DNA of 64,000 nt, taken from positions 318,224-382,223 of the forward strand of contig JAAOMT010000201.1 in NCBI GenBank assembly GCA_016748015.1, read 5' to 3'. Under the pieces are notes generated by a model. It was not told the origin of the DNA, searched no databases, and saw nothing but the letters and a program-made list of their open reading frames with translations. Both the position numbers and the translations under genes were made by a program. This stretch comes from Geosiphon pyriformis uo1. Taxonomy: Eukaryota; Fungi; Glomeromycota. Shown here piece by piece: positions 3,001-48,960 of this stretch. How positions within the stretch are numbered: the stretch's first letter is position 1; every line of letters starts with the position of its first letter.

Positions 3001-6000
3001 CTGTTGGACTTTCTGGCATTCCCAATGAACTCTGGAAACACAGTAATTCTTCAGTCTTTGATGGTTTTTTGTGCATTTTCAATAGGTGTTTAATATCTGG
3101 AGGGGTTCCTACACAATGGAGAAAGTCCTGGGTTTTTATGATTCCTAAACCTTATAATTGGGAGAGCACTCTTACCAATATTAGACCAATAGCACTAATT
3201 GAGACTGCCCAAAAAATTTTGTCTAAAATCTTTTCAGACAGGATCTCTTTGGCTTGTAGCAAGTTTGACGTTTTGCAGGGTAACAATTTCTCAGTGTTGA
3301 AAGGCACTTCTATGCAATCTCCTATTTTCACTGTTAGATTAATTGTCAAAGATGCTCTGGAGAAGAACAGGAAGCTGTGATTAGTGTTTCAGGATATGTG
3401 CAAGGCCTATGATTCTGTCAGGTGGTCTTATTTGCTCAATAGTCTGGTCAAGATCAAAATGTGTCCTCATTTCATTAATTTTTTCAGTAGTATTTACAAT
3501 GGTAGATACAATTAAGTAATGATGGATTTTGGTTTGTCTGATGGTTATATTGTGTATAATGGTCTGAATCAAGGGGAAGTATTTTCTCCACTACTATAGT
3601 GTATCTTCTATGATCCACTACTATGTAAAGTCAAAAAGCATGAACAATTATATAACTACTCTATGTGTTCAAAATTTTACACTAAGTCTGGAAAACCAGA
3701 CCCCAACAATAACAGGACTTTGTTTTTTGCCACAGGTGCCTTTGTTAATAATACAATCTGAATTGGAAACTGTTTGACAACAATACAAAATATCTTGAAC
3801 ATAGCCACTAAGTTTTTTTTTATCAATGACATTGCAATAAATACTGAGAAGACCATTGCTGTCCCCATCAATCAAGATGTCAGAGAAGTTAAACTTTTTA
3901 TTAGTGGGTTAAGAATTTCAGTGGCCAAGAGGGGCAAATCTTATCATTATTTGGGAATTTTTTTGTCAACTGACAGTCTTTTTAAGCCAAGTTTAGCCAA
4001 AGCCCATAATAATATAAAATTTTTTTCAAATGTAATATTGAGGAAGGCTATTACTGAGAAGCAATTTTTGTATTTGGTGTCTGCTGTTTTGCAGTCTATT
4101 ATTTGTTACAGACTTCAATTTAGTTTTGCATTCAGAAGTGTTTGTGAAAAATAAAACAATTTTTTGAAAAAAAAGCTTAAGTTCAAGGTGAACCTGTCTA
4201 GAGACTTTTCTAGTACAGCATTACATCATCCTGAACTATATGACCTGAAACGTTTTGAACAGATGCTTTCTGAAAGTATGCTGGCCAACCTGATCAATTT
4301 TAATAATGCTGGCAGAATTCTCGGTAGATTTTTCGCCCACAGGACAATGGATTTACAGGCTACTAGCTGGATGCCCCAACACTCTCTCTGTTTTCCGGTC
4401 ACATTATCTGTCAGTTTTTTGGATTGCTTTTTGGCTGGTACTACACATGTTTTTGCTTTGTGCAAGACCTCCTTAAGTGGTTTTTTTTCAAATGTTTTTT
4501 AGGCTGAGAAAGATGTGTCGATATTGGATGTGTTGGGCCTGATTAGTTACTTGGGTGTAAGGAATTCTCTTAGGAAATATGGCCTTATTTTTACCAACCA
4601 ACTATTGGATCATCATGGTATGTGCTTTACTTGGAACACTTTTTGTAGATGGAAGAGACTCAATTCAAGAAATCCAGTTCCTACCTGGTTTATATTCATT
4701 ACTAATTTTGTTAAGAATAGTGGTTTGGGCAATGGAGTGTCTGTGATGTTTTGTTCTGTTTCTGCCAAATTTTTTTATAACATTCATTTTGCTTCTGAAC
4801 ATTTGGTGGTCTCTGAGTGTAGATCTATTGTAGTTTACACTGATGGGTCTGTCAAAGGTTTGGGTTCTATTGGTGCCTGTGGTGGCACTGCTGCCTATTT
4901 TCCTAAAGCCAATGCTAGTATAGGTGTAAAAATTCTTGGCCTGTTGTCTTTAACACTAGTAGAACTGCAAGCCATTGCTTTGGCATTGGAGTGTGTATCT
5001 GTTTTCAGCGTGGTTACATTATTTACAAACAGTTAGACAGTGCTAAATATATGTAAGTTTGATGTGGGAGTACCTGGTCCTGATTTTTGCTGCAAATATT
5101 GGATAGAGAAAGAGCATGTTTGTCAGGTTGTTTCAAAGAAGAATCTGTTAGTTATGTGAAAAAAGGTTAAAGGACATTCAGATATTGTCAAAAATAACCG
5201 TGCAGATTTTTTTGCTAATGCAGCAGTTCTATTTAAGTCTGTACTGTCTCTGGATGTGCCATTTTGTTTTTTTCGGATTGAAAACAGGCCTGTTTCTGAA
5301 AATGCACATCATTTCATCAAAAATTTGTTTGATGCCATCAATTTTGTCAGTTAAGAATCCAGTTGCAGTGCCAGCATTATTGATGTTGGTATTGCTGGTG
5401 ATGTTGATATGCCTAAATTGTTCAGTGTTTGGCACTCTGATGGAAAGATCTGCTCCAGTTATACTAGTTTGTCTTTGGCTACTCTGCAGTCTTATTTTAT
5501 GAAGGCTCTGCATCGCTGCCTGCCAGTTGCTGTGAGGAAAAAGCTGTACAATCCCAAATATTCTAGTGTGAGGTGCATCAGGTATGGAATGGTTGAGGAC
5601 TCTGATTACATGTTTCAGTATATGTATAATAATAACATCAGAAAATTTATACTGTTGTTCATTAACAAGATGTAAGATAAGATGGCTGGTGAATTTACTG
5701 TAAAGAGTAGGATAGAACATTCTCTGCATAAGACTGAGTTATCTGGTGAATTGTACATGTTGTTGGCCAAGGGGTTTGTGTTGAAAAGCTGGGCTGCTGA
5801 TGCCATTCAATGTCTTGGCTCTGTTTCTGGTGGCTGTTTGATTATCAAGTTGGTTTGCAGTCTTACAGAGAATCATAGAATAAATATATGGTTGCCTGCA
5901 GCCAAACTAAGGGCCTTCTATGAGAAACACAATCTCCTACTACAGGATAGATTTGTGGTGCTTTTGATTGCTGGTTTGTTGGATGTTTGGGCTGTTGATG

Positions 6001-6256
6001 TCATCTGTAGCTTTGGTGTTAGGTTGGGTATTCATGTAAGTTTTGGTTTGTGTTCCTGTCTTGTTGGATTGGGATTCAGTTCCTTGTATAATATTTCTTT
6101 AATAGATCTTGTGAGTATATAGTGCTGCCTTAACTGGGCCAAGTGTCTGGTCACATATAGAAAAGGCATGAGCCATACTTAATTTAGAATCTTATTTGAT
6201 TTTATGTACTTAGGTAGTAGTTGGGCTGCACTCATTAATAATAATAATAATAAAAA
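1..6256 (+). mobile_element. LINE-1 of this window: degenerate non-LTR retrotransposon, 5' end beyond the window. ORF1 to 1440; ORF2 1437-6122 (APE endonuclease, RT, RNase H, C-terminal Cys motif)
   Basis: ORF2 starts MTKLI*KVATCNVQGLN (APE). RT motifs IPKP..RPIALIE, QDMCKAYD and GLNQGEVFSPLL. RNase H YTDGS..ELQAI..KVKGHS. Short 3' UTR and (TAA)n/A tail at 6235-6256. Many premature stops. Confidence 0.93.
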
Positions 6257-6409
6257 TATTTTTTTATAAATACATATTTTGTAAATAAATTTGTAATTAT
6301 ATTATAAAATTAATATAAATATATTAACAATAAAGTTTTAATAAGTTAAATATATATTTAAAAACCAACTAAATATAACAAAATAAAAATATTAAAACTT
6401 CTTTTTTTT

Positions 6410-9400
6410 ATTCATCCCAAAAATTCCCAAAAAAGAATCTAAAGTTTTTTAAAAAAAGTTTTTTTTCATCATTCAATATGATAAAACCAAACCATTTTTC
6501 AATTTCGAGACCACTGTTGACCTAAGCATTGCTATCATAAAGAAGGTTATTAAGAATTTTGGCTCTGGTAGAAGTTTTAAACCTGTTTTGTCAAGGAAAA
6601 AGAGGAAAAGTAGTGCTTTGAAGAAGAGTATTGGGAACAAGAAAAAATTTACTCAGATGCCAAGTGGTCTTTTATGGAGTTCTGAGACTGGTGACACCAC
6701 CAAGTCTGATAGTATAGATATGGAGAAAGAATGTCTAGTAGAGGAGACCAGCTTCAACTATAGTAAGGGTGGTATTCTTGCTGATGGGGATCCTAATCAG
6801 ATGCCTAAAAAACCAGGTGTTAAGACCAAGAAAGCATTGGATAAGTCATTAGGAAAATTAAATTTTTTAGGTTATGATATTAATAATAATGTTCTTTTAG
6901 ATGCCTTCTTGAAATTCTCTTCTCCCTTGAAGAAATTGGTTAATGTTTCTGTTTGTAAATTTTTTACATTGGATATCAGTTTAAACAATGTTGTAAAGAA
7001 ATCTTCTTATGAAAAGCTAATGGTAATTAAAAAATTATTTTTAAAGTCAATAGTTTTGGGGAGGCCTCTACTTCCTCAAAATTTTCTGAGATCATCTGTG
7101 TTTCTTTTATTTTTGAATCTAGTTTAATACAGGCTATGGAAAAGACAAGAGCAGCAAACATTTTGGTAAACACTGATCTTAAAAAATCTGCTAGTCACTC
7201 AAATCAGGCTATAGTGTTAAAGGAAATTCCAGTTGGAATGTTAGCTGAGATTGTGCATACTGCACTATCTGATTTTGGATCAATCAAGTCGATTAAGATG
7301 CAATTAGTGGAGCTGTAACAGAAAGCAATGATTAAATTTGACTAGATTGATCATGCTAATTTGGTTACAGCAAAATGGTCTATCCTAATTGAGAAGGATA
7401 CAATATGTGTTGCTAGATCCAATATGGACAAAAAATTATGGGATGCAAAGAATCTTTACAAAGCCTTTTTGTACACTCTGTTAATAGAGACTAATGTGCA
7501 TAATATTTGGAACTACATTATTTCAGTAAGTGGAAAAACTTGTGTTATTGACTGGCATTCAGTTTCTTATGCTTAGATTAGATGTGTTGCTATTTGTTTT
7601 GATTCTGCTGAGTTTTTGGATGCTATTATAGGGACCATGCCTGTTTTGAAGAAAGCCAATCTGCACTGGTTTTATTTTGTTTTGGCTAAGTATGCTGAAT
7701 GTAAAAAATTGGGTCATACATTCTTGACTTGTCCTGTTGATGAGAAAAAAATTGTTTTTTCTGGCAATTTGTCTTAGAAAATTCTTTCAGATTCAGATAA
7801 AAGCAGACTGGCTACTATTTATGCCAAATGCTCAGCTTTAGTTGCTTGTCTTGTTTCTTTTGGAGGTGTTTTTTGGGTGCAAATTGCTGGTAGGTCTTCC
7901 TTTTCTCTTCTTCTTGTTCAGAATAGTTTGTTAAGTACTGACTACTCTTTGAAGTTGAAGCCTACCCTGTTGGTGTCTTTGAAGTTGAATGATAGGTTTG
8001 CTGCTCTTGAGCACAGTCTCATCAGTCTCACAGAACATGTTGATAAGCTGGCTAAGAAGTTGAACACACTTAGACTAATGGTTTCTCAGCTTAGCCTTAG
8101 ACATTAGCTGTTGATAACCCCTTCATTACAGAATCAAGAGGCAAATATAGTGATAAGTGAAGATTTGGGTGTGACCATTAGTGACAAAACTGTGGTAAGA
8201 GTAGTGGTATTTGATTTCTCTATTATTAAAAAAATGGAGAAGACTTTGAACAATCTGTTAATTACAGTCATGAACCTTTCAGCCAAAATAGACAATGCTG
8301 GTATGATTTCTGTTATTCACTCTTCTTAATAACCAGTCTTGTATGGAAGATTGTTATATGTAATATTAGAGGTATAACAAATTTGGCAAAACAGAAGAAC
8401 ATTATTAGATAGTATTTGGAATCTGGTAACATGGTTTCTGTTCTTATTAAAACTAAGTTAAAGTTGAGTGCTGGGTCTTGAGTAAAGAACAAATTTAAAG
8501 GTGTTAGAATTTTCACTTCTGGTTTGAAAAAAGGTTTTTTTGGTACAGGTGTGGCTATTGTAATGAATAGTTTGCTGGCTTGTCATGTTTCAAAGGTTGA
8601 AGAAATTCCTGGCTGGTTTATTTCTATTTATTTGTTATTTAAGAATAAGCTTTCAGTGACATTTCTGGGTTTGTATGCTGGTGCTTCAGCCAGAACAAGA
8701 TTTGCTCAGGCTTTTGATGTTAACTCACTTATTTCTAAGGCTGTAAATACAAGCTTTTTCATAATACTTGGTAGTAATTTCAATGAAGATAGAGCTAAGA
8801 AGTGTGTCAGTTTTAAGAAGTGTTTGAATCTAGGTTTGGTCAACTTGTTGGATGGATCTTTTTTGCATAAATCAAGCACTTAGAACAACTTTTATAAGAT
8901 TAGTAAAATTATCGACTACATTTTTGTAGGTGAAAATCTGGTCTTAATTGTTGTTGGGCATGAAATTACTTTAGTGTCTAAATTTTTTGATACTAATCAT
9001 AATATGATTAGAATTTCAGTAGGATTAAGGGGCTTGGTAGATGCCTGTCTAAACAGTGTTTGTAAACAAACTAACAGGAACTGATGGAAGTTTAGGATTA
9101 AAGATGCAGATGCAGCCAAGTGAGTGTGTTTTAAAAAACTTTTTTTGGCTTTTTTGGCTGTATCTTCAGATTTTTTTCTGGTCACAAAAAAGAGAGGTGA
9201 CCTGAATGAGATGTGAGAGGTTTTGAAAGGTGCAGTTTATGGTTCAGCAAATGAAATATTTTCCAAACATTGGTTCTGTAAGTTTGACTGTTCAAGAAAC
9301 AAGCAGTCTTCGAGGTTTTTCAAATTGGAATTTTTGATCACTAAGATTTTGAAGTGTCTGTGTTCAGATTGTGTGTTAGAGTTTGATCAACTTGTTTAGA

Positions 9401-10024
9401 TTTGGTCAACTCTTGATAATATTAAGGCTTCTAAGTTTCGCATTATGCTCTAGGGCAGTTTGAAGTCAGATGTGTTGTATAGTCATTTGTCAAAAGTTAA
9501 AAAAGATTATCAGAAGTCCAAATACTATAAGGCTAAACTTGCCAAAAGTGGACACATTAGAGATGTAATTGATAAGTGTATAAAGAGTTTCAATTCAAAT
9601 AAAAGTGATATGATTAGGAGTATTCTGGAACAACTATTCCACAAAGTTGTTCTGGATTATTTGGTAATTGGGGATGAGCTGATTTTGGAACTTGAAGATA
9701 TAAGATCCAGAATTGATAAAATTATGGTGAATTGGACTTGCAAAAGGAAAAGTTTTTCTGTTTTGCCTGATTTATGGGCTTGTTAATATGCCCTATTAGC
9801 ACACATAGATGATAATACTTTTTCGAGCATAATGTGTAATATTAGTTTGGACAAATTGTCTTTGATGGTTAGTGAGTTGCCTGATCATAAAACCACTAGT
9901 CTGTTTGACATACCTAATAAGTTGTGGAAGTGTGGTGGTAATGATGATATAATGGCATGTCTTCTGAATTTATTGAACTTTTGTTTGAAGACTAATAATG
10001 TTCTTATTGCTTGGAAGAGAGCAT
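6410..10024 (+). mobile_element. LINE-2, 5' part (ORF1, endonuclease, start of RT), interrupted by LTR element A
   Basis: ORF1 fragments are homologous to LINE-1 (ILVNTDLKKS, WDAKN.YKAFLYTL). The RT reading WKRA stops at 10024 and resumes as *VFMIPKPYDW after 20007. The 5' boundary is approximate. Confidence 0.9.
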
Positions 10025-10931
10025 TGTTACAGGTAAACTTGGTGGGATATAATGGTAATATTTGGTGCTCTATTTTTGAGTCTATCAAGGTTGTTTGCTC
10101 TTTTTGCAGTATCAGTGTTATCAATCTCTGAAGGTTTATTCCTGGCTGTGAATTTACCCATTGAGTCTTTTGGTTATAAGGCACAGAGTTTGTCTTTCAT
10201 CAATTGTAACATTTTCCATAAATGTGAACTTTCTTTTCCATGCTAACGAGCACAGTTATTAGGGTCTGGCATTGTCTTTTCATCCTTCTGGTAAGCTACC
10301 AAGATAACGTTAATATCCAAAACTTAGAAGGAGCTTCCTTTTTTTACCAGGCTATCACAAAGTTTATTTCAAGACAGTCAATTTTCTTATATTGCCACTC
10401 CAAACAAAAGAAAAAAAAAGAAAATAAAAAAAGAAAAAAAAAAGAAAAAAAAAAGAATTAGTTCCTGTCAATCACTGTGATCAAGAGTGATTGGTCTAAA
10501 TTGTTAAGGGTTTAAGGTGTTTATGCTAATGGCATCTGTTCTAGAACAAGATAGGAAATACTGATTTTAATTTTCAATTAAAATTTGTAATATTGGAGAA
10601 CATGAATTGGTAATTTAGATTTCTTTTTGGTTTTTGATAATTAGTGTATTTCGAATTATGGATATATGATAAGTGTAATACAAAATAAATTTTATTGTTA
10701 ACTAACTGTCTAACTAACTGTTTTTTTAACTTCTACAACTACTTGCTTTTATACATTCTTTTGGTTTTACAGGATTGTTTTCAATTGCTTTACTATTGCT
10801 AACTATTGCTTGTTATTGTTAGCTATTGCTTGTATTTGTCTTGTGTTATCTCGAATTGTACTGAATTTTTTTTGTCACATTTCTTTGTCACATTTTTCCA
10901 TAGCTTTTTGGTTTTTTCTACTCAGGTAACA
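10025..10931 (-). repeat. 3' LTR of element A (907 bp)
   Basis: TGTTAC...GTAACA termini; direct repeat of 19000-20003; adjacent to the PPT. Confidence 0.93.
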
Positions 10932-10945
10932 TTATCTCTCTCTTT

Positions 10946-11686
10946 TTAAAATTGAGCTCTTGTGAAATCATCTATTTCAGTCAAGTTTGTGTTTTCCATA
11001 AAGAACTTGAATGTTGCCTTCAGTATTGCTTTTTGTAGAACTTCAAATTGGGTGTTTGTCTTCTGTTCTATGTTGTTAACTGTGATAGTTTTCAGAGTTT
11101 TGTCTAGTAATACCATTGAACAGTGTTTAAATGCTGAATGTAGTCAGTATGTTGCTTTGTAGTATAGGTTTAAGTTGTTTCTTCTCACAAATTCTTCTAC
11201 TTGTCTGCAGGCTTCTTTGTTGATTGTTCAACAGTTGAGGTTTTTGTATGGGCTATTTAATCTTAATTGCAACCCAATTTTAAATAGCCAATAGATGAAT
11301 AGAAGTTCTTTTTTCCATTTCTTTATGTTTTTAGGTGTCCATTCTCCTGTTACCTGCTCCAATGTTTTCTTGTTCAGCCCCTCCCTTATTTCCTCAATTC
11401 TTACCTAACACAGTTTTATTTCTGTTACCTTCCTCTTCTTTTTAGCTGTATTGGGTCCTATTCATGCCATATTCCTTTTTCTTTTTCTTTTTCTTTTATA
11501 GAGAGAGGTTTGCTGGTAAGAGCAGAACAGCTTAGTTCTAATTGAACTCTCGTCCATCCCTTTCTTGCTTTTATCCCTGTATTATATCTCTTTTTTATCA
11601 ATTGTGATTTCTATTTGAGTGAAAGATTGTTGAATTGTATCAAACAGTTGTTTCAAAAGTTGTAGAATTTGATTTAAAAGATCCAT
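10946..11686 (-). pseudogene. ORF3 of element A, unknown function (about 247 codons, in-frame stops)
   Basis: Hand translation gives a single frame MDLLNQILQLLKQLF...QVEEFVRRNNL...DDFTRAQF*. Homologous to 34292-34915. TATATATA at 11728-11735. Confidence 0.75.
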
Positions 11687-14600
11687 ATTGAAAAAGTTTT
11701 ATCATTTTTGTGTCATTTTTTGGGTGGTATATATACTTGAATTTCCCAATTTAATTTGCTATGTGTTGTCTATGTTTCAATGACAATAATTGGTTCCAGA
11801 TCTTGTGATATATCTTCTGGTCTGATTAATGGAATTTGTGTTCCTAGTTGATGTACTGATAACGATGACTGTTGTTTTATATGATAAATTTTTAATCAAT
11901 TCTCATAAGCTACTTTTTTTAAAATTCTGTCTTCCAATTGTAATTTGTAAGCTCCATTTCCTAAAGCTTTGTGTATGTAAAATGGGCTGTTCCACTTTGG
12001 GTCAAACTTTCTGCTCTATTGTTTTTTTGCTTATGTACGATGTAATAGTACTTGGTCTCCAATTTTAAATTCTATTAGTTGTTTGGGTAGGCAATCATCA
12101 TGTCTTTTTTTTTGTCATTTTTGAGCATTACTAATATTGTCAACTGCTGTTCTATGATTGTTTTCTAATATTTTTATTAGCTGGTATGTTCTTTGGTATA
12201 AGATAGCTTCAAAATTCTCTTTGTTGATTGTTTCTGTTGGGTATGATGATATCACTTGTTCAATCAGTAATGTAGTTTTTTTTCTATAGACTAATTCGAA
12301 TGGTGTAAACTGTGTCATATTTTGCTTTAATGTTTGATATGCAAAGAGTACAGAAAGTATGAATAAGTCCCATTTTTGTTTATTTTCATAACTTATTTTT
12401 GCTAATGTTTCACATAATGTCCTGTTAAACTGTTCTATCAGCTCATTTATTTATGGGTAATATGATGATGATAGAGGTTATTTTATACCAAAATGTTGAC
12501 TTAATTCAGTTAATGTAATATTGACAAAATGTGTTTCTTGGTCCAATAACAATTCTTTTGGACATCCATGTCTGCATATTAGATCTTGGTGTATAAATTT
12601 GGCTATTGTTTTGGCATCAGCTACTTGGATTGCTCTGGCTTCTGGCCATTTTGTAAGATAGTCTATGGCTATCGCAATGTAACAATTTCTTTTGAATGTA
12701 ATCAAGAGAGGACCAACCAAATTGATTCCAATTCTATCAAATAAATTTCCAACTGGAATGAGTCGAAGTGGTTCTGTTATTTTGGCTCCTCCTCTTTGCT
12801 GGCATGAATCACAATTGAGAACATATTCGAAGATATTCTTATACATCATAGGCCAATAGTATAGATTTTGTTGTTTTTTCCAGAGTTGCGTTTTTGTTGA
12901 AGTGTTCTGCAGTTGGGTCAGAATGCATACTATATAATATAGCTTCTTTTTCACTGTTCTTGATCAATTGTTGTGGGGTGATGTGGTTTCATCATTCTTA
13001 ATAATAGAGTTGGTTATTTTGAATAAAGTAATTTTGTACTTGTTTTTGTATGATATTTTGTTCCTGTTGAGATAATGTCTTCTTGAAACTTAGTGTCAAT
13101 AGGTACTAATGTAATTGCTGATAAGTAAGTGTGTTCATGGGTCCAAGATTAGATTTGTGGCATTCTTAACAAACTGTTAGCATTGGTGTTCTTGGATCCT
13201 TCCTTGTAATGGACTTTGAGTGGGAATTGTTGCAGATAAATACTTCATCTCACATATTTTCCTTTCAGCTATGGATTATTGAGTAACCAGATGAGTCCTT
13301 TATAATTGGTATATAGGTCAAATAGTTGCCTAAAATAGTGTTTCTATGTTTGTATGGCCCAATAAATGGTGAAGCATTCCAAATCCATTGTGCTATATAT
13401 TTTTTCTGCTGGGCTGGTACTGTGACTGGTGTAGACAATTGGATGTTCTTTTCTGTCTGGTCTTATTTGTGATAATACAGCTCCTAGTGCATTTTTTGAT
13501 ACATCTGTAGTGACAATAAATTATTTGGTGAAGTCGGAATAGATCAGTATTGGAGATGTGATTAATCACTGTTTAAGATAGTCAAAGGCTTTTTGTTGCT
13601 CTTCTTTTCACAGGTACAGCACATATTTGGACAACAAGTAATGAAAGGATTTTGTGATAGTTGAGAATTCTTTGACAAATTGGCAGTAGTATCCAGCCAA
13701 TCTTAAAAATTCTTATAGCTCTTGTAGGTTGATTGGGGCTTGAAAATTCTTGACTTTTTGGATTTTGTCTGGATTAGGTTTTACTCCATTTTTTCTGATT
13801 ATGTGTTCTAAAAATTTCAGTTTGGTTTTCCCAAAAAAGCATTTATCAGGGTTGAGTTTCAATCTGGCTCTTCAAAGGCATTCAAAGACTTGTTGCAAGT
13901 AGAGCAAATGTTCATTAAATATTTCCGAAAAGACATTGGTGTCATTCAAGTATACTACAACTGATTTCCACAAGATTCCTTTATACATGACATCCATGAG
14001 ACATTGGAAGATAGCAAGAGCATTGTACAGTCCGAAAGACATTATGTTGAATTCAAAATTTCTGTCTTGGGTGATGAATGCCATTTTTCCTTTGTCTTTT
14101 GGGTCCATTTCAACTTGCCAATATCCACTGGCTAGATCTAGTAACAAGAACTATTTTTTCTTTCCTAAGTTGTTTAGGATTTCTTAAATAAGAGAAGTGG
14201 AATAGCTATCTCTTTGGGTAATGCTATTTAATTTCTGGTAATCCATACAGAACCATACCTTTCCATTCTTTTTTGTGACTAAAACCACTGAAAAGGACCA
14301 AAAGCTTAATGATTTTTTAATCAGTTCATTGTCAAGCATTTATTGTACCTCCTGCTTAATCAGATTATTACCAAATGAGGGTACTTGGTAAGCTTGCTGC
14401 TTAATAAGTCAAGTATTTCCAGTGTCAATTTGGTGTTTCACAATGTCAGTGTATCCGAATTCATTTTTGCTGACAAAGATATTGGCATATTGGTTCAATA
14501 GAATCTTAAGTTGCATTTGTTGTAAAGTGCTCAGGTTTCCCAAATTAAGTTTATTGATTTCTTCCAGTGTAAACAAGTAGCTTTCCTTTGGCAGGTTTTA

Positions 14601-14974
14601 TACTTGTGAGGTAATGTCACAAAACAAGAATAATTGAGTAAAATCTGGAATGAGCTGGGGTTTTTCTGGATTCTAAATATCTGAAGATATGGAACCAACA
14701 AGAGTTCTCTCAGGAATTTCAATAATGTTTTTGGTTGGATTGTGGATGAGGATTTTGAAGTATTTATAAGCTTTGGTGAGTAAGTACAGGTTAGCAACAT
14801 TGGCTAACAAGCAGATTTCAGAATTGGTCTTGAAGATTAGTGCTTGGTTCTGAATCCTTCAGTTGACTTTGAGAATGTACTGCTGATAAAAAGGGATAGA
14901 AATGATAGTGTCAGTGTAAATAAGTTCTACTTAGTTACTATCCTCCTTCATAAAATTGACCATTATGTTTTCTC

Positions 14975-15370
14975 TTCCACTTGAGCCAAACTCATTGATT
15001 CCTTGGATAATAAAGTCTAATTCTTCTTGGGTGGTAACTGGGGCTAGTTGAGGTATTTTGACTAAAGATAGAAAAATGGCTTGGACAATTTTTTTGTGAA
15101 ATTCGATCTTGTAGGGTTTGTCTGAATTATTCTGTAGCATCATGATAATGTTTTCCATATATTCAGCATCAATAATTCCTCCCTTTACATTGATTCCTTT
15201 CTTTGCAAGGCTTGATCTAGACACTACTTGTATCATGATGCTAACAGAAATTTTTAATGCTATTTTGAAATCTATTTTTACTAGAAAATATGGACTATAA
15301 CTATAGGTGACTGTTCAGGGTATTTTAAGTCAAAATCTGCATCAGTTTCATGCACTTTTTCTGGGCATAT
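14975..15370 (-). pseudogene. dUTPase domain inside pol of element A
   Basis: Motifs ADFDL, SRSSLAKKG, GGIIDAEY, KIVQAI and QGINEFGSSG correspond to dUTPase motifs I-V. Confidence 0.88.
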
Positions 15371-18300
15371 TTCTTCGTTGTTGTCACTGTATCATTTTAA
15401 TTTTAATTCTTTGGAGAGGTCGGAGTATGCAAAGTATTATTCTATTTCAGTAGTCTGATTTGGCTCTTGAAATAACATGTTCTTGGCGAGTAATTTCTCT
15501 TCTTCCTTGGGCTTAGGTAATTTGGTGATTAGATATAGGATTCTGGAAGGCAGGTTGAACATGAGATTACACTTGTCGCAGTATTGAAAGTGACAAGGAA
15601 TTAAGCAGTGATTGCATAGTTTGGTATTTAGATCAGCTAGCCACTGTTCTTGCTCTTTTCGGGTTGGGACCAATTCCTAATATTAGCTCTGAAATGCATT
15701 GGAATCATCTGTGAAAAAATCATTTGCAGGGTAGTTGGGTCCATTATATTTGGGTGTTCAAGGGTTGTCTTTAATTTCTTGTATTTCTTTGGGCATGGCA
15801 TCTTTGGCTTTGGTGCTTGTCATTCTCCAGATTTTGTGGTTATCATGTGGATAACCATCCAGCCTATTGAGAGCTTATTTCCAAGCATCCTCGATGGAAG
15901 TTCCTTTTCATACCCAATTGTTGATTAATATGATGTACTGACAAGCCTCGTTGTATGTTCTTCCTCTACCAGGCACATCATTCCAGAGTCTTTTATTAGA
16001 CAAGATCTTGCCACATGTGAAACACAGCATGTTGTCCCACTTGCCTTGTCATTTTGGTCATCTAAATTTTTCCAGTAAACAAATTTGCAGTAATATTTGG
16101 TGGTGGTGGACCATTCTTCATTGTCTTCAATACATGTGCCCATAGTGGATAGCTTTTTTCCACAATCAACATATATTAGTTTTAGAGGTTAGTAAAATAG
16201 ATTTTTTTGGTCCAAGATTATGTATCCTAGTAATAGCAATTTGGGTTTTTCTTCGGCTTTGTCTTTTTTTTTTTCTTCCCAGATTGGTAGTAGGAGTAGT
16301 TCAGTTTGATAATCATCTGCTCATGAAACCTGATAGATCTCAATAGTTGATAGTGGTGGTGTGTCTTCAAATTCAATAAAGAGTTCCTCAGTATATTGGG
16401 TTTTAAAGTGTTCATACATAGCTGGAATTCGGGCATGCTGTCTGTTGAACATGAGTTGAAGTTCTTGGGTGTTCTAATTGAGTGTAGTATTGGTTTTTAA
16501 CAACCAATCATTTTCTACTAGTGCTTGGTATTAAGTAGCTTCTATAACAAGTACTTTGATAGAGATCTAAATTTCATTAATCTTGAAGAGAAAGTTGTCA
16601 ATTTTTCCTATCAGGGTTTTTGTGTTTCCATCCACCATAATGATCCAGATAGTAGCAGCATGGTTTATTTGACAATCTAATTAGTCCATGAGTTGCTTCG
16701 TGATTATGCTACTGGCTGATCTGTTATTCAAGATTAATTTAATGTCTATTCCTCCAACTCTGACATTAGTGTATAGGGTCATTATTGGTTTATTCTGATT
16801 GATAACTGCTCTACTAAAAAGGCTATGAGTGTTCAAATTATTAATATCAAAAGAAAAAATGACAGCTAAGGTGGTGTTCTCAATAATAGTGGCCAGTGAG
16901 ATATTGTTTTTTGTTTGCTTGGAAGATTGGGAGATTTGCTCTACATCCTTTTTTTCCACAGATGTAAATTTATCAAAACCCTGGTTTTCCATGAGACCGA
17001 GATAGAAAGCTTGATTCAGATATCTGGTTGGTGCTGGTTGAGATTGAGCAGGACTACAAGGGATTGGTCAAGACAGTTCACTGCTGGTTTGCGCCTGATT
17101 GTTGTTGGAATTTCTCCATCCCTGATTATAGTCTATAGCTTGAGGTCTGGGCTGACTGTAAAAGGAAGGTTGATAGTAAGGGATTGCTTGTGTCATTGGT
17201 GGTGGTTGATAATAATTCTGGGGCGGTAGTTGAGTGTACGGGACTTGTTGTGCATATAGGAGCAGTTGATTCTAAGGTATAAAATATTGGGGTATTATGT
17301 TTTACTGATATTTGGGTTGCTGGTATGGGTTTTCTTGATTTTGGTCTATGATCTTCCTTCTGCAGTCACGGGCAATGTGTCCAGGTTTCTGGCAGTAGTA
17401 ACAGTTATGGGGATCAAATCTTCAAAGTTGTTACTGTTGCTGATAGTTCTGTTGCTGTGGATATCTGCTGTTGTTGTTATTTTCTTTTCGTTGTGGTAAT
17501 TGGTAAGTTTCTGTGGTTCTGGCTAAGAATTCTCAATTTTCTGAGTTAATTTTTTACTTAATTGGGTTATCTTTGCATCAATGTTAGTGGTTTTATTGAT
17601 GGCTAAGTTAATGACTTAAGTATAGTTTACTTCTTGTTCAGCTGACTCAAAATCACAAGTGAGAGTGACTGCTTCTTGTAGGTTTGCCAGATGGTGAGAT
17701 CATATGAATCTTAGAAGGCTGCTCCTTAGTTCTTTAATGAATTGATTGAGAACTTGCATGGTGGTATAATAATTCTGCTCAATGGCTAAGATTTGTCGAA
17801 AAACCTGATTGAATCTTCCGAAATAAGTAGTTACTGCTTCATGGTCATTTTGTTTAATTATACTGAATTGATTTTGCAACTGGATAAGTGTATTAGGGTC
17901 ACAGAAGTATTGCAGAAATGTGAGTTTAAACTCTGTAAAGGAGGTAGGCTTCTCTGCAAAGCTCTGGTATCACGAATTGGCAGTTCCAGTTAAAAAAAAT
18001 GGCAGTGCCTGAATTGTATGGTCATTATCCTAACTGTTAGTGGTAATTGTTTTCTTAGCATCCACGATTCAAGAATATGCATTATCTTCTTCATCCGAGA
18101 ATTTCTCCAATTTAGCGATATCCTGGTAAGCCATGATCCGGTTAATGGGTAGGGTGTTATTAGTTACATTTAAGGGGATTGGTGTCTGCGTATTCAAGTG
18201 TTCTCTGGGTGCTAATGCTGGTTGTTTTTCTTTGTCACTTAAACCAATAGATTGTAAAATAGCTGTTTTTTTTATTAGGAGAAATGCTGATTCTGTTGGG

Positions 18301-18999
18301 TTTTGTGCTGGTGGTTGTTTCTAAATTGATGTGTTTCTTTCTGTTTGACTGGCTGTTGGGATAAGATTTCCAAACAGCAATTCATATTCTTCTAGTGATT
18401 TGGTCCAACTGTGTTGACCCCAAGGGTGTGAATTTCCAGAAGTACATGGTGTTTCCAACTGGGTTTTTGGGTGTGAGTTGAATACAATTCTACTTTGGGG
18501 TGTCTGATGGTATGAAGAAGTTGTTGGTGAGAGGATTCTTGGTTTCTTGTTGACTGTAGACTTGTCTTGGACAGTTGTAAGATTATTGGATCTGTACTTG
18601 TATTCCTTCAGATTGGATTCTACTGGTTGTTGTATTTGAGAGAATTGGTTTGTCACATAGTGTTTAATATCTGAATTGACTATGTATAGAGTTTCAGCAA
18701 TTGCTTGAGTAATGGTAGTTGTTGAGTACTCTAGTAAGCTTTGATGAATTTGTTCTCCAAGTTTTTCTGTATCAGTTGTGCAGCCTAACAAACAGTTGAT
18801 TTTTGTGTTGATATAGTTGCAAAAGTCACTTTTTGTGATGGTGGTTTCTGCTGGTATTCCTAGATTTTTTCAAAAGTATTGAAATAATGCTCTTCCATAT
18901 GGGGAGTAATTCTTTCCTATTGTTCCAATAGTCACCATTTTTGTGTATCTCTGGGGTGCTCTGTCTTTGTGGATTTATAACCTTACAGGGAGCACTAAA

Positions 19000-20003
19000 T
19001 GTTATGGGTAAACTTGGTGAGATATAGTGATAATATTTGGTGCTCTATTTTTAGGTCTATCAAGGTTGTTTGCTCTTTCTGCAATGTCAATGTTATCAGT
19101 CTTTGAAGATCTATTCCTGGCTGTGAATTTACTCATTGAGTCCTTTGGTTATAAGACACAGAGTTTGTCTTTTATCAATTGCAACGTTTTCTGTAAATGT
19201 GAACTTTCTTCTTCATACTAACAAGCGCAGTTATTAGGGTCCAGTATTGTCTTTTCACCCTTCTGGTAAGCTACCAAGATAACATTAATATCCAAAACTT
19301 AGGAGGAGCTTCTCTCTTTTACCAGGCTATCACAAAGTCTATTCCAAAACAGTCGATTTTTCTATATTGCCACTCTGAACAAAAGAAAAAAAAAAAAAAT
19401 AAAGAAAAAAAAATAAAAGAAAAAAAAAATTAGTTTCTATTAATTGCTATGATCAAGAACAATTGGTCCAAATTGTTAAGGGTTTGAGGTGTTTATGCTA
19501 ATGGTATTTGTTCTGGAACAAGATAGGAAATACTAATTTTAATTTTCAATTAAAATCTGTAATATTGAAAAACATGAATTGGTAATTTGGATTTTTTTTT
19601 GGTTTTTGATAATTAGTGTATTTCGAATTATGGATATATGATAAGTGTAATACAAAGTAAATTTTATTGCTAATTAACTATCTAACTAACTGTTTTTTCA
19701 ACTTCTACAATTACTTGCTTTTATACATTCTTTTGGTTTTACAGGATTGCTTTCAATTGTTTTACTATTGCTAGTTATTATTTGTTATTACTAGCTATTG
19801 CTCGTTATTGCTAGTTATTGCTCACATTTGCTAGCTATTGTTTGCGTTTGCTAGCTATTGTTCATGTTTGCTAGCTATTGCTTACGTTTGCTAGCTATTG
19901 CTCACATTTATCCTGTGTTATTTCGAGTTGTACTGCATTTTTTTTGTCACATTTTTTTGTTACATTTTTTCATAGCTTTTTGGTTTTTTCTACTTGGGTA
20001 ATA
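19000..20003 (-). repeat. 5' LTR of element A (1004 bp), with an expanded ~20-bp tandem array at about 19765-19910
   Basis: Direct repeat of 10025-10931. TGCTAGCTATTGCTC-type units are more numerous than in the other LTR. Confidence 0.93.
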
Positions 20004-23000
20004 GCATGAGTATTTATGATCCCCAAGCCATATGACTGGGATAAGATTCTAACTAACACCAGACTAATTGCACTAATTAAAACCACAAGGAAGATTCTGT
20101 TCAAGGTTTTGTCAGATTGCATTTTATTTGTGTGTAGCAAGTTTGGCATTCTGCATGGTGACAACTTTTTGGTCTTAAAAGACACTTCAACTCAGTTTTC
20201 CATTTTTGCTGTTGGCTTAATTGTCAAAGATGCTTTAAAAAAAGATCATAAAATTTGGTTGGTCTTACAGGATATGTGGAAAGCATATGATTCAGTTGAT
20301 TGGCATCATTTTAGGTCCAATTTAGAGTGCATCAAAATGTGTGGCGACTTTATAAAGTTTTTTGGCAATATTTATAATAACTAGGTTAATAGAATTATGA
20401 CTGATTTTGGTCTTTCAGATGGATATGTGGTCTACAATGGGTTGGATTAGAGTAAAATTTTCTCTCCACTTCTGTGGAGAATTTTTTACAATTCTTTGTT
20501 GTGTAAGGTCAAAAAGCAAGAACATTTATATAAATATAGGATTATTTCAAATTTTGTTGTGAAATCTGGCAGAATTGAGTCTAGTGGTAGTAAATCTTCT
20601 TTTTTGTGGCTGGTGATTTTGTTAATAATACAATTTGGATAGAGAATAGTCAGGCATCAACACAGTACATTTTGGATATTGTGAATGAGTTTTTTGAGAT
20701 TAATGACATCTTAATAAACAATGACAAAACTGTGGCCATTCCTATTAATCCAAGAATAGCTAATGCTTCTTTGTACATCAATAGTAGACCTATCTCCATA
20801 GTAAAAAATGATGAGTCTTATAGATACCTGGATATTTTTTTGTTAACAGAGGGTCTGTTCAACCAAGTCTTGCTAAGACTTATGTAGATGTTAAATTCTT
20901 TTTGAATATGGTTCTTAGGAAGGCAGTGTCTGATAAACAGTGCTTTTATTTGGTTTCGGCAGTTCTCCAGCCTATTGTTTGTTATCATATGCAGTTCAGT
21001 TTTGTTTCTAAGAGTGTGTGCTAAAGGTGAAACGTTTTGATCAAAAAAAGTCTTAAGTTTAAGGCCATGTTGCTGAAAAACTTCTCCAATAAGGCTTTGC
21101 ATTATTCATTTTTGTATGGTCTGAAGTCATTTGAGCAGATGCAAGCTAAATTCAAGATTGCCTTGGTAATTGGTTTCTCAAATGCTTCTGGAATTTTTGG
21201 CTGATTGTTTGAACACCATGTTTTGGATTTACAGGTTTTGGGATGAATGCTCCATAATCCTTTGTACTATCCTGTCAAGTTAAAAGTTTGTCTATTAAAT
21301 AACTTCCTAACAGAAGTTGTAAGGATTTTTATTGATGTTGATGTTTCTTTGTCCAATTATGTGCTTTGTGCATTCCATAGTTCTGGCCACTTTCCAATGT
21401 CTGAGATTCTTAGAGCTGCCTCCTATTTTGATATGATGTATTTTTTGAAGCATTTTGGTATTGCCTTTGGAGATGTTTTGATTACCAAGCACAGTCAAGT
21501 TATGAATTAGAAAACTTTTCAGCATTGAAAGAGATTGAGCCCTAGGGGTCTGGTGCCAATCTGGTTTACTAAAGCTTTTGTGCATGTGAATGGTTGTTTG
21601 GCGAATCTTAGTAGAGATAAAGCTGTTTTGGACTATTTTAATTTTCTCTGTTTGAGTAATTACTTATGTATTTGTGAACATTTGCATGAAGTCTGGGCCA
21701 GAGAGCTGAACATATATACTGATGATTTATTGAGTGATTTGGATATGAAAGATGTGACTTGTGGGGCAGCAGCTTTTTTCTCTAAGATTAGTTTGGGTGT
21801 AGGTGTCAGAGTTCAGGGTTTGTTGTCTTTTACTTTAACAGAGCTACAGACAATTGCTTTAGCATTAAAATGTGTTCTCTTATCATGCTCTGTGATGCTT
21901 CACTCAAATAACCAAGCAGCTTTAGATGCTTGTGTACTGGAATGTGAATTGAGTTACCCTGATTTTCAGAATAGGTGCTGAGTGAAGAAGTGTTACATTG
22001 CTAATTAGATTAAATCAAAGGACATTTCAATAAGATGGGTTAAAATGAAGTGACATTTAGGCATAATAGGAAATAATTGTGCAGATGCTCTGGCTTATGC
22101 TGTAGTGCATTCAGATCTGGTTTTTTTAGCCAGAGTTTCTAATAGGTTTCTTGTAACAGATGGTTTAGTTGTTTCTGGTAATACTTGCCATTTTGTCCAT
22201 GATGTTTACTGTATTGTATGTTAGACAATGTAAAAAGCTGGGTCTAGTGCTAATGTTTTTGACAATTCAGCTATTTAAGGTGTTAACTGAGAATGTACTG
22301 CCTCTGTTTGGCATCTAAATACTTATATGTTGGTGGACTTTACTAATAAGAAGTTTATTCTGCATACTTATTTGATGAAGGCAGTACACAGAAGATTGCC
22401 AATGGCTGTTTATAAAAGACTTTATAACAAGAGTTACCTGAGTGTTTTATGTCTGATATGTGACAATATTGAATTTTTTGATCATGCTTTTATGTGTTTT
22501 GCAGATGTGGTTGTGCATTCTGAATTTGTCTCCAGTCATATTGATTTGTAGAAATCTCTAAAAGGTAATTGTTTCTCAGTATCTTCTTTGGTGCTCTTTA
22601 CTCTTACAGGTGTCTCTGATAATGGTATGTATACTATGTTGTGCAAGAAGTTTGTTTTTGTGAATTGGATTAAAAAAGCTGTTTCTGTTTTTGGCAACAG
22701 GAGAAAAGCTGTGTTAATTGTTGTTGGTTTTGTTCACCATTTGGCTAATAATCATTATAATAGAGCTTAAGTACTGAGATCTAAGTTCTAAGTTGATATG
22801 AAAAAGTATGGTTTGGTTTGTAATACAGATGAGGTCTTTGCTTCTTTCCATGGCTTGTTTGGTCTGCTGTCTGTGGGTGTAGTTTGTATGCTTGGGGTCT
22901 TGAAGTCTTTTACTATTAGCTTTGGTTTTAGAAAATGATGCTTGTTTTTTTCTGGCTTGGATAATGATAAAAAAGTTTTTGTGAGTGTATAGTGCTGTCT

Positions 23001-23127
23001 TAATGGGCTTGAGTGGCTTGTTATGTGTAGTAAGTACATAAACCACATTTAGTTTAATTCATTTCACTTTGTTTCTGTATGCTAAACAGTGGTTAAACTG
23101 CATTTGTTAAATAATAATAAAAAAATA
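20004..23127 (+). mobile_element. LINE-2, 3' part (RT, RNase H, 3' UTR, tail)
   Basis: MIPKPYDW, QDMWKAYDSV, IYTDD and ELQTIALAL motifs. 3' UTR homologous to 6120-6240, followed by TAATAATAAAAAAA. Confidence 0.92.
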
Positions 23128-23276
23128 ACAAAATTAAATATTTAATTAATATATATTTTATTATAATAATTGTATTTGAAAATTAATATTTAAGATTAAT
23201 AATATTAATTTTATTAATTGGGTAAAAAAAACTTAATGTTAATTATTATTAAATTATTATTAATTATCTTTTTTTA

Positions 23277-24260
23277 TTAATAAACCACAAGATTTCAATG
23301 CCTTCAAAGTGGAATTTCTAAGATACTTCAATAACAATAACAGCATCAATTGCCTAGTTAATGCATTTATCACCATAAAACAAGGAGAAACTAAAGCAGT
23401 CACCATTTACCTGGGACGCTTCTATCAAAACCTATGCCAAATTCAAGCAATTGATGCCAATTATTTCACAGCACCACAAATACTCAATCAGTTTATCCGT
23501 GGCTTGTGCAGCAGCATATTGCAACATGTACAGCCATTACATCTAGGTACCCTTCAAGACACAGTTACACGTGCCAGAGATTTTGAATCCGCCAAGTCAG
23601 AGACTAACTATGCCCAAGCCGTTAACCTAGTAATGAACGGATCATCTGAATTGGATTCTAAATTAGAGAAGTTCAGTAAATCAATTAATAAGAGATTGGA
23701 AAGATACTTAGCTGACAATCACACCATTTATCAGCCTCCACAACGATGCAATAATCAAGGAAATTCTAATTGTGGCCAAAATCAATTACATCCATCTTTA
23801 TCGACCAATCAACAGTGGCAATAGAAAACATGTATCTGCCACTATTGTGGTAAACAAGATCATATCCAAATTGACTGTCACCAGCATCTAAATAACCAAA
23901 GATCGGGAAATCAATATCGAAACCCCAATCACTGGTTCCAAACTCCAAATCATTATCCAAATCAGAGTTAAGACCAATATCAAAATAATTACCTGCCCAT
24001 GACGCAGCAACCAATCTATCAATCATCAGTATATTAACCTCTGATTCATTAGCCACAGCCACAAGTAATATATCAACCACAACCACAAATCATCTATTAA
24101 CTCCAACTAATTCAAATACCAACCCAGAACCCAGCTCAAATGACATCAGGCAACTCTCGATCCAGAGTCACTCAAAACTGGAAATTGGCGATGGTTGTTT
24201 ACCAACCAATCTCCAGTTCACTAAACCCACCATTAGGATCACGCATCTGGAATTTGGATA
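23277..24260 (+). mobile_element. Inverted gag fragment belonging to LTR element B
   Basis: Gag sequence with a CHYCGKQDHIQIDC knuckle, colinear with about 27724-28734 of element C. It begins exactly where the minus-strand gag of B breaks off. Confidence 0.85.
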
Positions 24261-33900: not shown

Positions 33901-34291
33901 AACTACCAGATAAACCAGTTGAATTCAAGATTGGAGACAAAGTATTACTACATCATACCAAAGTGGAAAAACAATGGAGTAGAAAATTCGATTCCAAATG
34001 GGACAAACCATTTCACATAGAAGAAATTCTAGAAAATGAAGCTTACAAATTAAGATTAAATAACAAAATCTTGACCAAAGCAGCACATGAAAATCAACTG
34101 AAACCATACCACCATATAGCATCATTATCTACCAGTAATATTCCACAATTAGGAGTACAGAGAATACTAGTCCAACCAGATGAGATTCCACGAGATCTGA
34201 AACCAATTATTATTATTGACAACAATACATCCAATTGATCAACAAAAGAATATATAAGAACATGATTAATGCGACAGAAGAGATCAAAAAA

Positions 34292-34915
34292 ATGGAAATT
34301 ATGAACAATATCTATTGACTAGCCCAACAAATTTTTCAATTAATCCAGAAGATGGAAATTACCATCAATCAATAAACCATTCGTTACAAAAATACGGCAA
34401 AAATACCACAAAACAAAGCACAGAGAAAATTTGAAAATGTTGTTGATAAGATTGTAACCAAGATAAAATTGGCCATAAAAAAACAACAAATAGTCAGATT
34501 ACACCAAAAACTTACCAAAGAAACTTGGACTTGGTGGACACAACAATTTCCGAAAAACTATTGTCATTTCCACTTGGGACAACACGTAAATATCCAGAAT
34601 TTGTACATTAACAAAACAAAACGGTTATTTGACACCACAATACTGGGACAACTAGAACAATTTGTGGGAAAGAACAATCTAACTACACAAGCTTGAGCCA
34701 TTTACCGGCTATATATGGGATTTCAAGACTGACCAGAAATCTTACTCAACATAGCAATGAATACAGTTACAAGTAATCAATTGGGAAAAATGACCAATGC
34801 CCAATTTGAAGAACTACAAACTAAAATAACATAAGTAATACTCGAAAAAAAAATGCAAGAAATAATTCAAGAAGGGAAATTAAAAGAATTAGATTTTGAC
34901 GGAGCTCAATATTAA
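34292..34915 (+). pseudogene. ORF3 of element C, unknown function (about 208 codons, in-frame stops)
   Basis: Single frame MEIMNNIY*LAQQIF...QLEQFVGKNNL...LDFDGAQY*. TATATAA at 34251-34257. The stop codon abuts the PPT. Confidence 0.75.
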
Positions 34916-34928
34916 AAGAAGGGAATAA

Positions 34929-48706: not shown

Positions 48707-48960
48707 CTTAGTGTAAAAATCGAAGCTGAAATCATTAATCCTTTCTTTTGATTGAAAAAGTACGCATGATCATCAAGAAGATACAGATATATTATTACAA
48801 AATTATTTTCTATTTTAAAAAAAGGGCTTTCCTGAATAAGTTAAGAATTAAGCGTGCATCTTTGAGTGTTTTTTAAATTTGAGACAATGACAATTTATTT
48901 CGTACGGTTCGGAAGCCGGAACTGATCATTCACTTTGGAGCTTCACATGAAAAAAATCAA

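Follow-up and report, generated by a model that had tools for sequence, protein, structure and literature searches.

Sequence comparison indicates that the third ORF (ORF3) of a decayed LTR retrotransposon from Geosiphon pyriformis is a genuine and conserved accessory gene, not an env, that is under purifying selection and lies between the integrase and the polypurine tract (PPT). Its protein may be a nuclear regulator that acts on its own element, a reading to which we assign a probability of roughly 40%. Extra ORFs behind pol form a known class, few of whose members have a function, and those of fungi are nearly unstudied. The ORF3s form a defined family that has intact members in nature, a model that can be folded, and candidate import and translation signals, so that their role is directly testable.

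Elements A and C and the ORF3 reading frame

The window analyzed here, 64,000 nucleotides in length, was searched in six frames with a 115-sequence ORF3 profile, and the only matches were the two ORF3s of elements A and C. Element A (10025..20003, minus strand) is a decayed Ty3/gypsy LTR retrotransposon with paired LTRs, a PPT beside the 3' LTR and a 4-bp target-site duplication, GCAT, on both sides; element C spans 26306-35790. The 5' LTR of A (19000..20003) precedes a PBS-like sequence near 18997-18980, and its 3' LTR (10025..10931, TG...CA) carries 10/20-bp tandem repeats and TATAAAAG; the pair is 89.8% identical over 904 columns. The LTRs of A and C have different tandem repeats. Pfam domains found in A are gag, zf-CCHC, dUTPase, RVT_1, RNase H, Integrase_H2C2, rve and SH3_Tf2-1. 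All on the minus strand, they include the Gag core (Retrotrans_gag, 17787..18002), a dUTPase between protease and reverse transcriptase (14997..15359; PF00692, E 2.2e-11), reverse transcriptase with RNase H (13224..14273), and the integrase (H2C2, rve, SH3; 11713..13138). The domain order is gag-PR-RT-RH-INT by Pfam, with a protease that scores in C and is visible in A by similarity to C only. The integrase of A occupies a separate frame and has an ATG of its own, 10 nt past the RNase H stop. A six-frame search of A and C, both of them decayed copies, detected no chromodomain at E<=0.01. The element is CpG-depleted, with an observed/expected ratio of 0.18 vs 0.95 at 44-52 kb.

The initial annotation described a frameshift-free frame of about 247 codons at this position, and we count 246 codons plus TAA at 11686-10946 (minus strand), with 5 internal stops and no frameshifts. 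The remaining two sense frames contain 22 and 17 stops. The density of stops (5/246) equals that of the integrase frame of the same element (6/338). As had also been described, the frame ends at the PPT (10932..10947, minus strand): its terminal TAA (10948-10946) continues into the PPT, which starts within this stop codon and adjoins the 3' LTR at 10931. The start had been placed about 40 bp past TATATATA; the distance to that Met is 41 nt, and the Met is present in frame, but the probable start is an ATG 10 codons upstream, at 11716. The decayed ORF3 of A would thus occupy 10946..11716, and its probable N-terminal extension of 10 codons holds 2 further stops.

A homologue is indeed found in element C at 34292-34915 (plus strand), with 27% identity over 259 columns (E 2e-12). 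With its upstream ATGA at 34262 the decayed ORF3 of C covers 34262..34915 and contains 5 stops; its second Met is at 34292. All four motif pairs quoted for A and C are present in the C homologue. One of them, DFTRAQF/DFDGAQY, does not hold as evidence at the protein level, however, since a metagenomic retroelement (L001, described below) and three ORF3 subfamilies read it in a different frame; it is a nucleotide motif beside the PPT.

Family membership and selection

Homologue searches returned 93, 74 and 168 matches (120 of the 168 listed). The sequences fall into seven subfamilies at 18-48% identity, mostly gene models of G. pyriformis, which align over their whole length (hhalign probability 99.1). 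Of 233 database proteins that match, 29 are gene models in which integrase sequence precedes ORF3. Two metagenome scans were run, the first of which was empty and the second of which gave 2 loci out of 328 pattern matches. The L001 retroelement has the order RT-RH, INT, an intact ORF3 of 230 amino acids, PPT and LTR-like DNA; a spacer of 316 nt separates INT from ORF3, with no stop/start overlap. No relatives of ORF3 were found in the viral contigs, phages or plasmids searched. ORF3 is thus a sense additional ORF (aORF-3S) at the DNA level in A, C and L001, and also in these 29 gene models.

Rather than lying near 1, NG86 dN/dS for ORF3 was 0.2-0.5 (0.39, 0.53 and 0.21 for three pairs) and that of the integrase 0.20-0.26, values obtained with dS near saturation and from protein-guided alignments, which push the ratio downward. 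Codon position 2 is the most conserved and position 3 the least in all three ORF3 pairs. ORF3 diverges much faster than the integrase, with identities of 20-31% vs 55-60%. The claim of a conserved accessory gene is therefore borne out by seven subfamilies, by purifying selection, and by an intact natural copy in the corresponding slot of L001.

It is very improbable that ORF3 is no gene at all, being instead an A-rich stretch left open by chance and shared through descent. The shuffles leave some room for this reading: 5 or fewer stops in the best of six frames occurred in 1.35% of 10,000 base shuffles for A and in 3.2% for C, P values no smaller than 0.014 and 0.032. It is largely refuted by the intact 230-codon ORF of L001, by the codon-position pattern, by the confident predicted fold, and by protein similarity between C and L001 (blastp E 1e-12) without DNA similarity (no blastn match better than E 0.098).

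The ATGA junction and the candidate internal TATA box

In both elements exactly 10 codons separate the upstream in-frame ATG from the second Met, and this ATG overlaps the TGA of the integrase frame as ATGA (11713..11716, minus strand, in A; 34262-34265 in C), a candidate stop-restart junction. The overlap holds at 11716 in A and at 34262 in C if one earlier integrase-frame stop per copy is counted as decay. The N-terminus is readable in 62 of the C-type gene models, 22 of which begin at the upstream ATG and 37 at the second Met. From the sequence, the true start of ORF3 in A and C is probably the upstream ATG. A comparable AUGA stop-restart junction is described for victoriviruses, where an upstream pseudoknot is also required (PMC6631646). 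The two cases are alike in the overlap of upstream stop and downstream start in a fungal host. They differ in that L001 lacks the motif. Folding of the decayed copies, by a method that does not predict pseudoknots, gave no stable structure upstream of the ATGA (z -0.08 and 0.18).

The initial annotation gave ORF3 a TATA box of its own. The candidate box in A, TATATATA (11728..11735, minus strand), is matched by TATATAA at 34251-34257 in C, upstream of ORF3, and TATAWA occurs at -49 in A, -41 in C and -126 in L001, counted from the second or only Met. The box itself is thus present, but its role as a promoter is putative, because its bases double as two codons (Tyr-Ile) of the integrase frame and lie too near the upstream ATG. 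The distances are 11 nt in A and 4 nt in C, too short, given where Pol II starts transcription, for a transcript from the box to include the upstream ATG; in addition, A was chosen because the box is present. That ORF3 is expressed mainly from a TATA-driven internal promoter, in the manner of foamy viruses, is accordingly a tentative reading, though one compatible with a regulator function. In its favor, TATAWA has a background of 5-8% in 60-bp windows, the boxes of A and C align, and the ATGA has no stable structure upstream. The internal promoter of foamy virus likewise lies inside coding sequence (PMC7390438). For the A and C families stop-restart translation explains the data no less well, since the TATA bases serve as Tyr-Ile codons and precede the probable start by just 11 and 4 nt.

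Protein features and possible functions

The AlphaFold model is helical, in agreement with the initial annotation, with a mean pLDDT of 80.9 (89-97 in the core). The predicted layout is an N-terminal helix and beta-hairpin, a disordered linker, and an all-alpha core bearing a conserved K-x-N...R-L-Y-x-x-F patch. The absence of a transmembrane segment was likewise confirmed, the highest 19-residue Kyte-Doolittle mean being 0.44-1.29 in 8 family members. Judged by this hydropathy the protein is not env-like, as had been proposed. An env-like or membrane protein enabling spread from cell to cell would be favored by the location behind pol and ahead of the 3' LTR and by nothing else; with no hydrophobic segment (maximum 1.29), 1-5 unconserved cysteines and a soluble helical model, this function can be practically dismissed. 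The description of the protein as basic suits A (pI 9.9) but not P0058 (5.9), P0077 (5.4) or P0134 (7.0); with pI ranging over 5.4-9.9, net charge is not conserved in the family. An enzyme or a zinc finger is disfavored, since 8 representatives compared have no acidic, Cys or His residue in common at any position. A motif resembling the PY-NLS consensus (R/K/H-x2-5-PY; PMC2408616) occurs in 6 of the 7 subfamilies, against a chance of 2-5% per shuffled protein, the six occurrences being homologous and thus not independent. It lies in the variable-length linker, where pLDDT is under 50; it is absent from the C subfamily and lost in window copy A, the ORF3 of which has a basic run.

The initial annotation did not recognize the family, and our searches of Pfam, PHROGs, NCBIfam, PDB and viral folds did not change this; nor did the libraries searched yield a confident match to a described retrotransposon ORF. 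No Pfam family scored above cut-off for any of 18 proteins submitted. The best PHROG match (E 0.0012, 1 of 8 proteins) was to an unknown family, the best NCBIfam match (E 0.005) was far under cut-off, and the best PDB sequence-profile match had an E of 0.69. Foldseek found nothing with E<=0.001 in PDB and BFVD. With the P0077 model VIA-align gave no match at Z>=5, and with the P0102 model its best Z was 6.2, confined to long helices; these fold searches scarcely covered the N-terminal helix-hairpin. The best 50 of 48,161 chains for the P0077 model include ParB-family DNA-binding domains, namely Spo0J (Z 4.2, rmsd 5.3, 93 aligned), KorB (Z 3.3) and ParB (Z 3.2), where Z under 8 is the stated noise; they are absent from the best 50 for the P0102 model. 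The helical arrangement of model residues 78-207 is thus weakly similar to the helix-turn-helix domain of these proteins (Z 4.2), but Z is in the noise, a small profile comparison showed no similarity and ORF3 has no ParB N-terminal domain. Homology to ParB by sequence was unsupported (hhalign probabilities 0.2 and 0.1 in a small set of 6, 2 of them non-ParB; no Pfam match).

In the regulator reading, a small, helical, non-membrane protein would enter the nucleus and bind the DNA of its own element, sustaining its expression. The PY motif, together with the basic run in A, would serve as the nuclear-import signal and the core as a helix-turn-helix-like DNA-binding unit, and each subfamily protein would recognize its own LTR, activating or de-silencing it in trans. 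A/C-type elements would make the product by stop-restart translation after the integrase, possibly adding a form shorter by 10 residues from the internal TATA; L001-type elements, with their 316-nt spacer, would need a separate transcript. Faster divergence of ORF3 than of the integrase would follow from each protein keeping pace with cis sites of its own. Also in line with a regulator are the CpG depletion of the element and the methylation of transposable elements in AM fungi (bioRxiv 2021.03.30.436303). Against a regulator, LTR repeat words near the internal TATA are not enriched above background (background fraction 0.06-0.43), and a protein made solely after the integrase could not initiate the expression of a silent element. 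The anti-silencing or targeting roles put forward initially are putative and fit the anatomy of ORF3. The fuller proposal is unlikely as a whole: a polycistronic fungal gypsy lineage with a separate integrase ORF and a new-fold nuclear DNA-binding ORF3, AUGA-coupled or internally promoted, which would activate or de-silence its own LTR in a family-specific way and would have aided the expansion of these elements in a genome reported as 41% LTR sequence.

ORF3 might instead be an integrase partner: a module, detached from the integrase, that serves the pre-integration complex in targeting or nuclear import, is made in step with the integrase via the ATGA, and occupies the slot of the chromodomain in chromoviruses. 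Its place directly behind the integrase, the stop/start overlap in A and C, the NLS-like motif and helical core, and the lack of a detected chromodomain in A or C all agree with this, as does the fact that in A, C and L001 the integrase itself is divided from RT-RH, a stop and a new ATG lying between them. The spacer without overlap in L001 does not, and the difference of 52-82% among five subfamilies within one host seems greater than expected for a tether to a conserved host protein; we consider the partner role somewhat unlikely. An RNA-level factor, which like Rev or CERV would export unspliced genomic RNA, or like caulimovirus P6/TAV would promote reinitiation, is improbable. P6/TAV promotes reinitiation on multi-ORF RNA, and the element has at least 3 consecutive frames (gag-pol, INT, ORF3). 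An Atlas feature search pointed to clusters of two RNA binders, the Closterovirus coat (0.91, 0.93) and a T4 RegA-type translation repressor (0.88, 0.92). CERV provides a precedent (PMC10309623). The Atlas matches share 109-148 of 256 features, however, vs 170 typical of true members, and recognition (2119) was below threshold; Foldseek gave no coat or RegA match at E<=0.001, and both identities were set aside as weak matches.

Additional ORFs in sense orientation, placed after pol and before the 3' LTR, are a known class (reviewed in PMC7264820), which ORF3 resembles in slot, orientation, and conservation across copies and families. The plant sense ORFs described have transmembrane segments, and those of bdelloid rotifers, which include non-env ORF3s (PMC5408684), are env, TM, GDSL or DEDDy proteins; Geosiphon ORF3 has none of these features. 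A dUTPase is carried by rotifer and basidiomycete elements and by element A. Fungal Gypsy elements with an 'add. ORF of unknown function' (PMC2864245) are a further example of the class. No description of ORF3 was found in the literature covered, which stood apart from the Geosiphon genome papers, Repbase and the supplements of PMC2864245. Grande gene23 of maize (PMC7264820) is also an accessory gene, located after pol and before the 3' LTR, and encodes a nuclear protein, but is antisense with a demonstrated promoter, whereas ORF3 runs in the sense direction and in A and C shares bases with the stop of the integrase frame.

Two further systems can be compared. VANC proteins are the anti-silencing proteins of VANDAL DNA transposons, acting by binding and demethylation. 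VANC and ORF3 are alike as accessory proteins that diverge fast, in hosts that methylate DNA, and in the tandem repeats of their elements, which are specific to each family (PMC5735166); it belongs to another transposon class, ORF3 has no Pfam match, and binding or demethylation by ORF3 is putative. Foamy-virus Tas shares with ORF3 a 3' gene past pol, a candidate TATA in coding sequence and a proposed DNA-binding activation of its own LTR (PMC7390438), but ORF3 belongs to a fungal retrotransposon, has no viral sequence or fold match, and has a promoter that is only a candidate, so that Tas is no more than a working analogy. Should ORF3 activate its own LTR or counter host methylation, retrotransposons would have in it an equivalent of Tas or VANC, and it would offer a clue to the LTR richness of the G. 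pyriformis genome (41.2% LTR; PMC11952901). Well over a hundred G9A89 gene models labeled 'hypothetical protein' are fragments of the transposon gene ORF3, not host genes.

The ORF3 gene and its family

Element A, an LTR retrotransposon at 20003-10025 (minus strand; LTR pair 89.8% identical, 4-bp TSD), has Pfam matches to gag, CCHC, dUTPase, RT, RNase H and integrase (H2C2, rve, SH3) domains and no Pfam chromodomain. Between its integrase and polypurine tract (PPT) lies a further sense frame, ORF3 (11686-10946, -). As the initial annotation described, this frame is broken by stops alone: its 246 codons contain five stops and zero frameshifts, and its stop codon overlaps the PPT start. Stop density resembles that of the integrase frame (5/246 versus 6/338), while the other sense frames contain 22 and 17 stops; the openness has a base-shuffle P of 0.0135. 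The homologue proposed for element C (26306-35790, +) is indeed found in the same slot, with 27% identity and E 2e-12.

A word search with A alone as query picked out a single protein from 174 candidates. It is a Geosiphon pyriformis gene model in which the integrase tail is fused to the N-terminal half of ORF3. When 1.84 billion representatives were searched with a profile, 93 matched; of ten that were looked up, eight were G. pyriformis models and two ENA/JGI proteins. A second search gave 74 matches (72 Geosiphon, 2 ENA) and a further search 168, with 119 Geosiphon proteins and one JGI protein among the 120 listed. These matches point to Geosiphon or a near relation as the probable host, and no database protein shares an exact run of 30 or more residues with the window. 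The proteins form seven subfamilies, 18-48% identical to one another. Two deep groups can be aligned end to end (hhalign probability 99.1); long-branch joins in the tree are possibly false. Among 233 matching database proteins, which are gene models on decayed DNA whose false introns may skip stops, integrase precedes ORF3 in 29, dUTPase precedes it in one, and Gag follows in seven. An intact ORF3 was verified at the DNA level only in L001, a metagenomic retroelement locus encoding RT-RH, integrase (one stop) and, after a 316-nt spacer, a stop-free ORF3 of 230 aa that continues through the PPT into LTR-like DNA. Several near-full ORF3 models occur in a nine-member Geosiphon subfamily cluster (P0134), and in another model (P0141) dUTPase is joined directly to ORF3; these may represent a younger or internally deleted family.

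In codon alignments of A, C and L001, position 2 is the most identical and position 3 the least. NG86 dN/dS for the ORF3 pairs is 0.39, 0.53 and 0.21, versus 0.20-0.26 for integrase, values that are rough given a nearly saturated dS and a protein-guided alignment. The C and L001 ORF3s match as proteins at E 1e-12, and their best DNA match is no better than E 0.098. The initial annotation named a ratio near 1 or a known family as grounds against its gene; ratios of 0.21-0.53 were found, and the family it did not recognise gave no significant family or fold match in Pfam, PHROGs, NCBIfam, PDB profile or Foldseek searches. ORF3 is a real accessory protein family, and an artefact is exceedingly improbable.

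ORF3 fits the known positional class of sense additional ORFs, as the available text of three sources describes it (PMC7264820; PMC5408684; PMC2864245); in fungal gypsy elements, unnamed additional ORFs and a dUTPase are shown in the last of these. The available portions of PMC3248453 and PMC11952901 do not mention such an ORF. The family itself is apparently undescribed so far: no description was found in the literature searched, whose scope lies outside Geosiphon genome papers and Repbase.

Expression of ORF3 and integrase

TATAWA occurs at -49 in A, -41 in C and -126 in L001 (background 5-8%), with the box of A aligned to that of C. The TATA box of the initial annotation is therefore present, but its role as ORF3's own is less clear: in A and C it reads Tyr-Ile in the integrase frame and lies only 11 nt (A) and 4 nt (C) before an upstream start. 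This in-frame ATG (A 11716, C 34262) is exactly 10 codons 5' of the Met first taken as the start (A 11686, C 34292), and its bases, ATGA, include the integrase-frame TGA. Among 62 C-type gene models, the start is the upstream Met in 22 and the second Met in 37; the 10-codon extension of A contains two stops. The integrase frame has one earlier stop in each of A and C; since these differ in place, and A has TGG at the TGA of C, they are consistent with decay. Fungal victoriviruses use AUGA as their stop-restart motif and also require an upstream pseudoknot (PMC6631646, in part); no stable RNA structure was predicted ahead of ATGA in the decayed copies A and C.

The integrase itself has an ATG 10 nt (A, 13151-13138, -), 39 nt (C, about 32770-32815, +) or 24 nt (L001, 772-801, nearly intact) beyond the RNase H stop. 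Because integrase thus has its own ATG past a stop, all three elements look polycistronic, in contrast to the one- or two-ORF layouts of fungal gypsy elements in the available text of PMC2864245. For A/C-type ORF3, coupling to integrase has roughly even odds, an own promoter is somewhat less probable, and splicing is unlikely; the three are not mutually exclusive. L001-type elements would need a separate ORF3 transcript.

A short nucleotide motif directly upstream of the PPT is kept in A (10950-10958, -), C (34902-34910, +) and L001 (3090-3100), even though the frame in which ORF3 reads it differs. A role as a cis signal in plus-strand priming is probable.

Protein features and possible function

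The AlphaFold2 model of the ORF3-family protein P0077, built with 45 sequences, has a pLDDT of 80.9 (core 89-97). It predicts a helix plus a beta-hairpin, then a disordered linker at residues 40-50 and an all-alpha core, with a long helix at the C-terminus, in agreement with the helical look noted initially. The A-type protein P0102 shows the same order (pLDDT 73.1). The description as basic does not extend family-wide, as net charge varies (pI 5.4-9.9). ORF3 proteins have no TM segment, as was claimed; an env identity was rejected and is extremely improbable.

The residues P56-Y57, Y132, G138, K169, N171, R181-L182-Y183 and F186 (A numbering) are among those common to at least six of eight representatives, and none of the positions invariant across the eight is acidic, Cys or His. 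The linker carries R/K/H-x2-5-PY in six of seven subfamilies (shuffles 2-5%), a PY-NLS consensus (PMC2408616, in part). The C subfamily lacks this motif; in copy A it is altered, and a KRKRKRKR run is present there. The top 50 of a wide structural search included Spo0J (Z 4.2, rmsd 5.3, 93 aligned), KorB (3.3) and ParB (3.2), behind or beside unrelated helical proteins. This resemblance is a lead only, because it was not reproduced by the second model and has no sequence support.

LTR tandem repeats are family-specific and are candidate regulator binding sites. Their units are 10/20 bp long in A (19766-19909 and 10794-10833, more copies in the 5' than the 3' LTR), whereas C-type LTRs have units of 39/40 bp (35007-35114, 26104-26234, 61343-61472).

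We tentatively propose, with a probability of about 0.4, that ORF3 binds DNA in the nucleus and acts as a regulator of its own family's LTR, which it would activate or de-silence. The linker PY motif would mediate nuclear import; DNA binding is suggested by the weak fold hint and a conserved basic/aromatic patch, and family specificity by fast subfamily divergence within one host and the differing A and C repeats. The selective context would be a CpG-depleted element in a fungal group with TE methylation (bioRxiv 2021.03.30.436303, in part). Its action may resemble that of Tas (PMC7390438), VANC (PMC5735166) or CERV (PMC10309623), as the available parts of these papers present them; no membership is claimed. 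Against an LTR regulator stand the unconserved charge, the C subfamily lacking the PY motif, and the lack of any above-background sharing of LTR words near the TATA box. ORF3 might instead be a partner of the integrase that it follows, which we regard as unlikely, or a factor for RNA export or reinitiation, which is less likely still.

Other features of the elements and their surroundings

The two A LTRs (10025-10931 and 19000-20003) differ by 90 transitions and only two transversions, at CpT (38), CpA (20), CpG (20) and CpC (12). Because transitions dominate and changes extend beyond CpG, a RIP-like or deaminase-type process is suggested; RIP signatures are reported absent in Gigaspora margarita (bioRxiv 2021.03.30.436303, in part).

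A and C share a conserved cysteine-rich insert of ~250 aa, located between protease and dUTPase (about 16250-15400, -, in A; about 29650-30300, +, in C); it contains several CxxC motifs and has no match in Pfam. By eye, a second dUTPase-like beta-rich stretch apparently lies between the scored dUTPase and RT (about 15000-14600, -; about 30900-31350, +). The 5' LTR remnant of C is only 170 bp (26306-26475), adjoined by an inverted C-type LTR with a gag fragment (24259-26307). The flanks at 1-10020 and 20007-23200 are decayed non-LTR retroelement DNA with endonuclease-, RT- and RNase H-like stretches (by eye), and related copies occur at 54200-59400. A tRNA-Arg(CCT) gene lies at 48960-49034 (-), amid normal CpG content.
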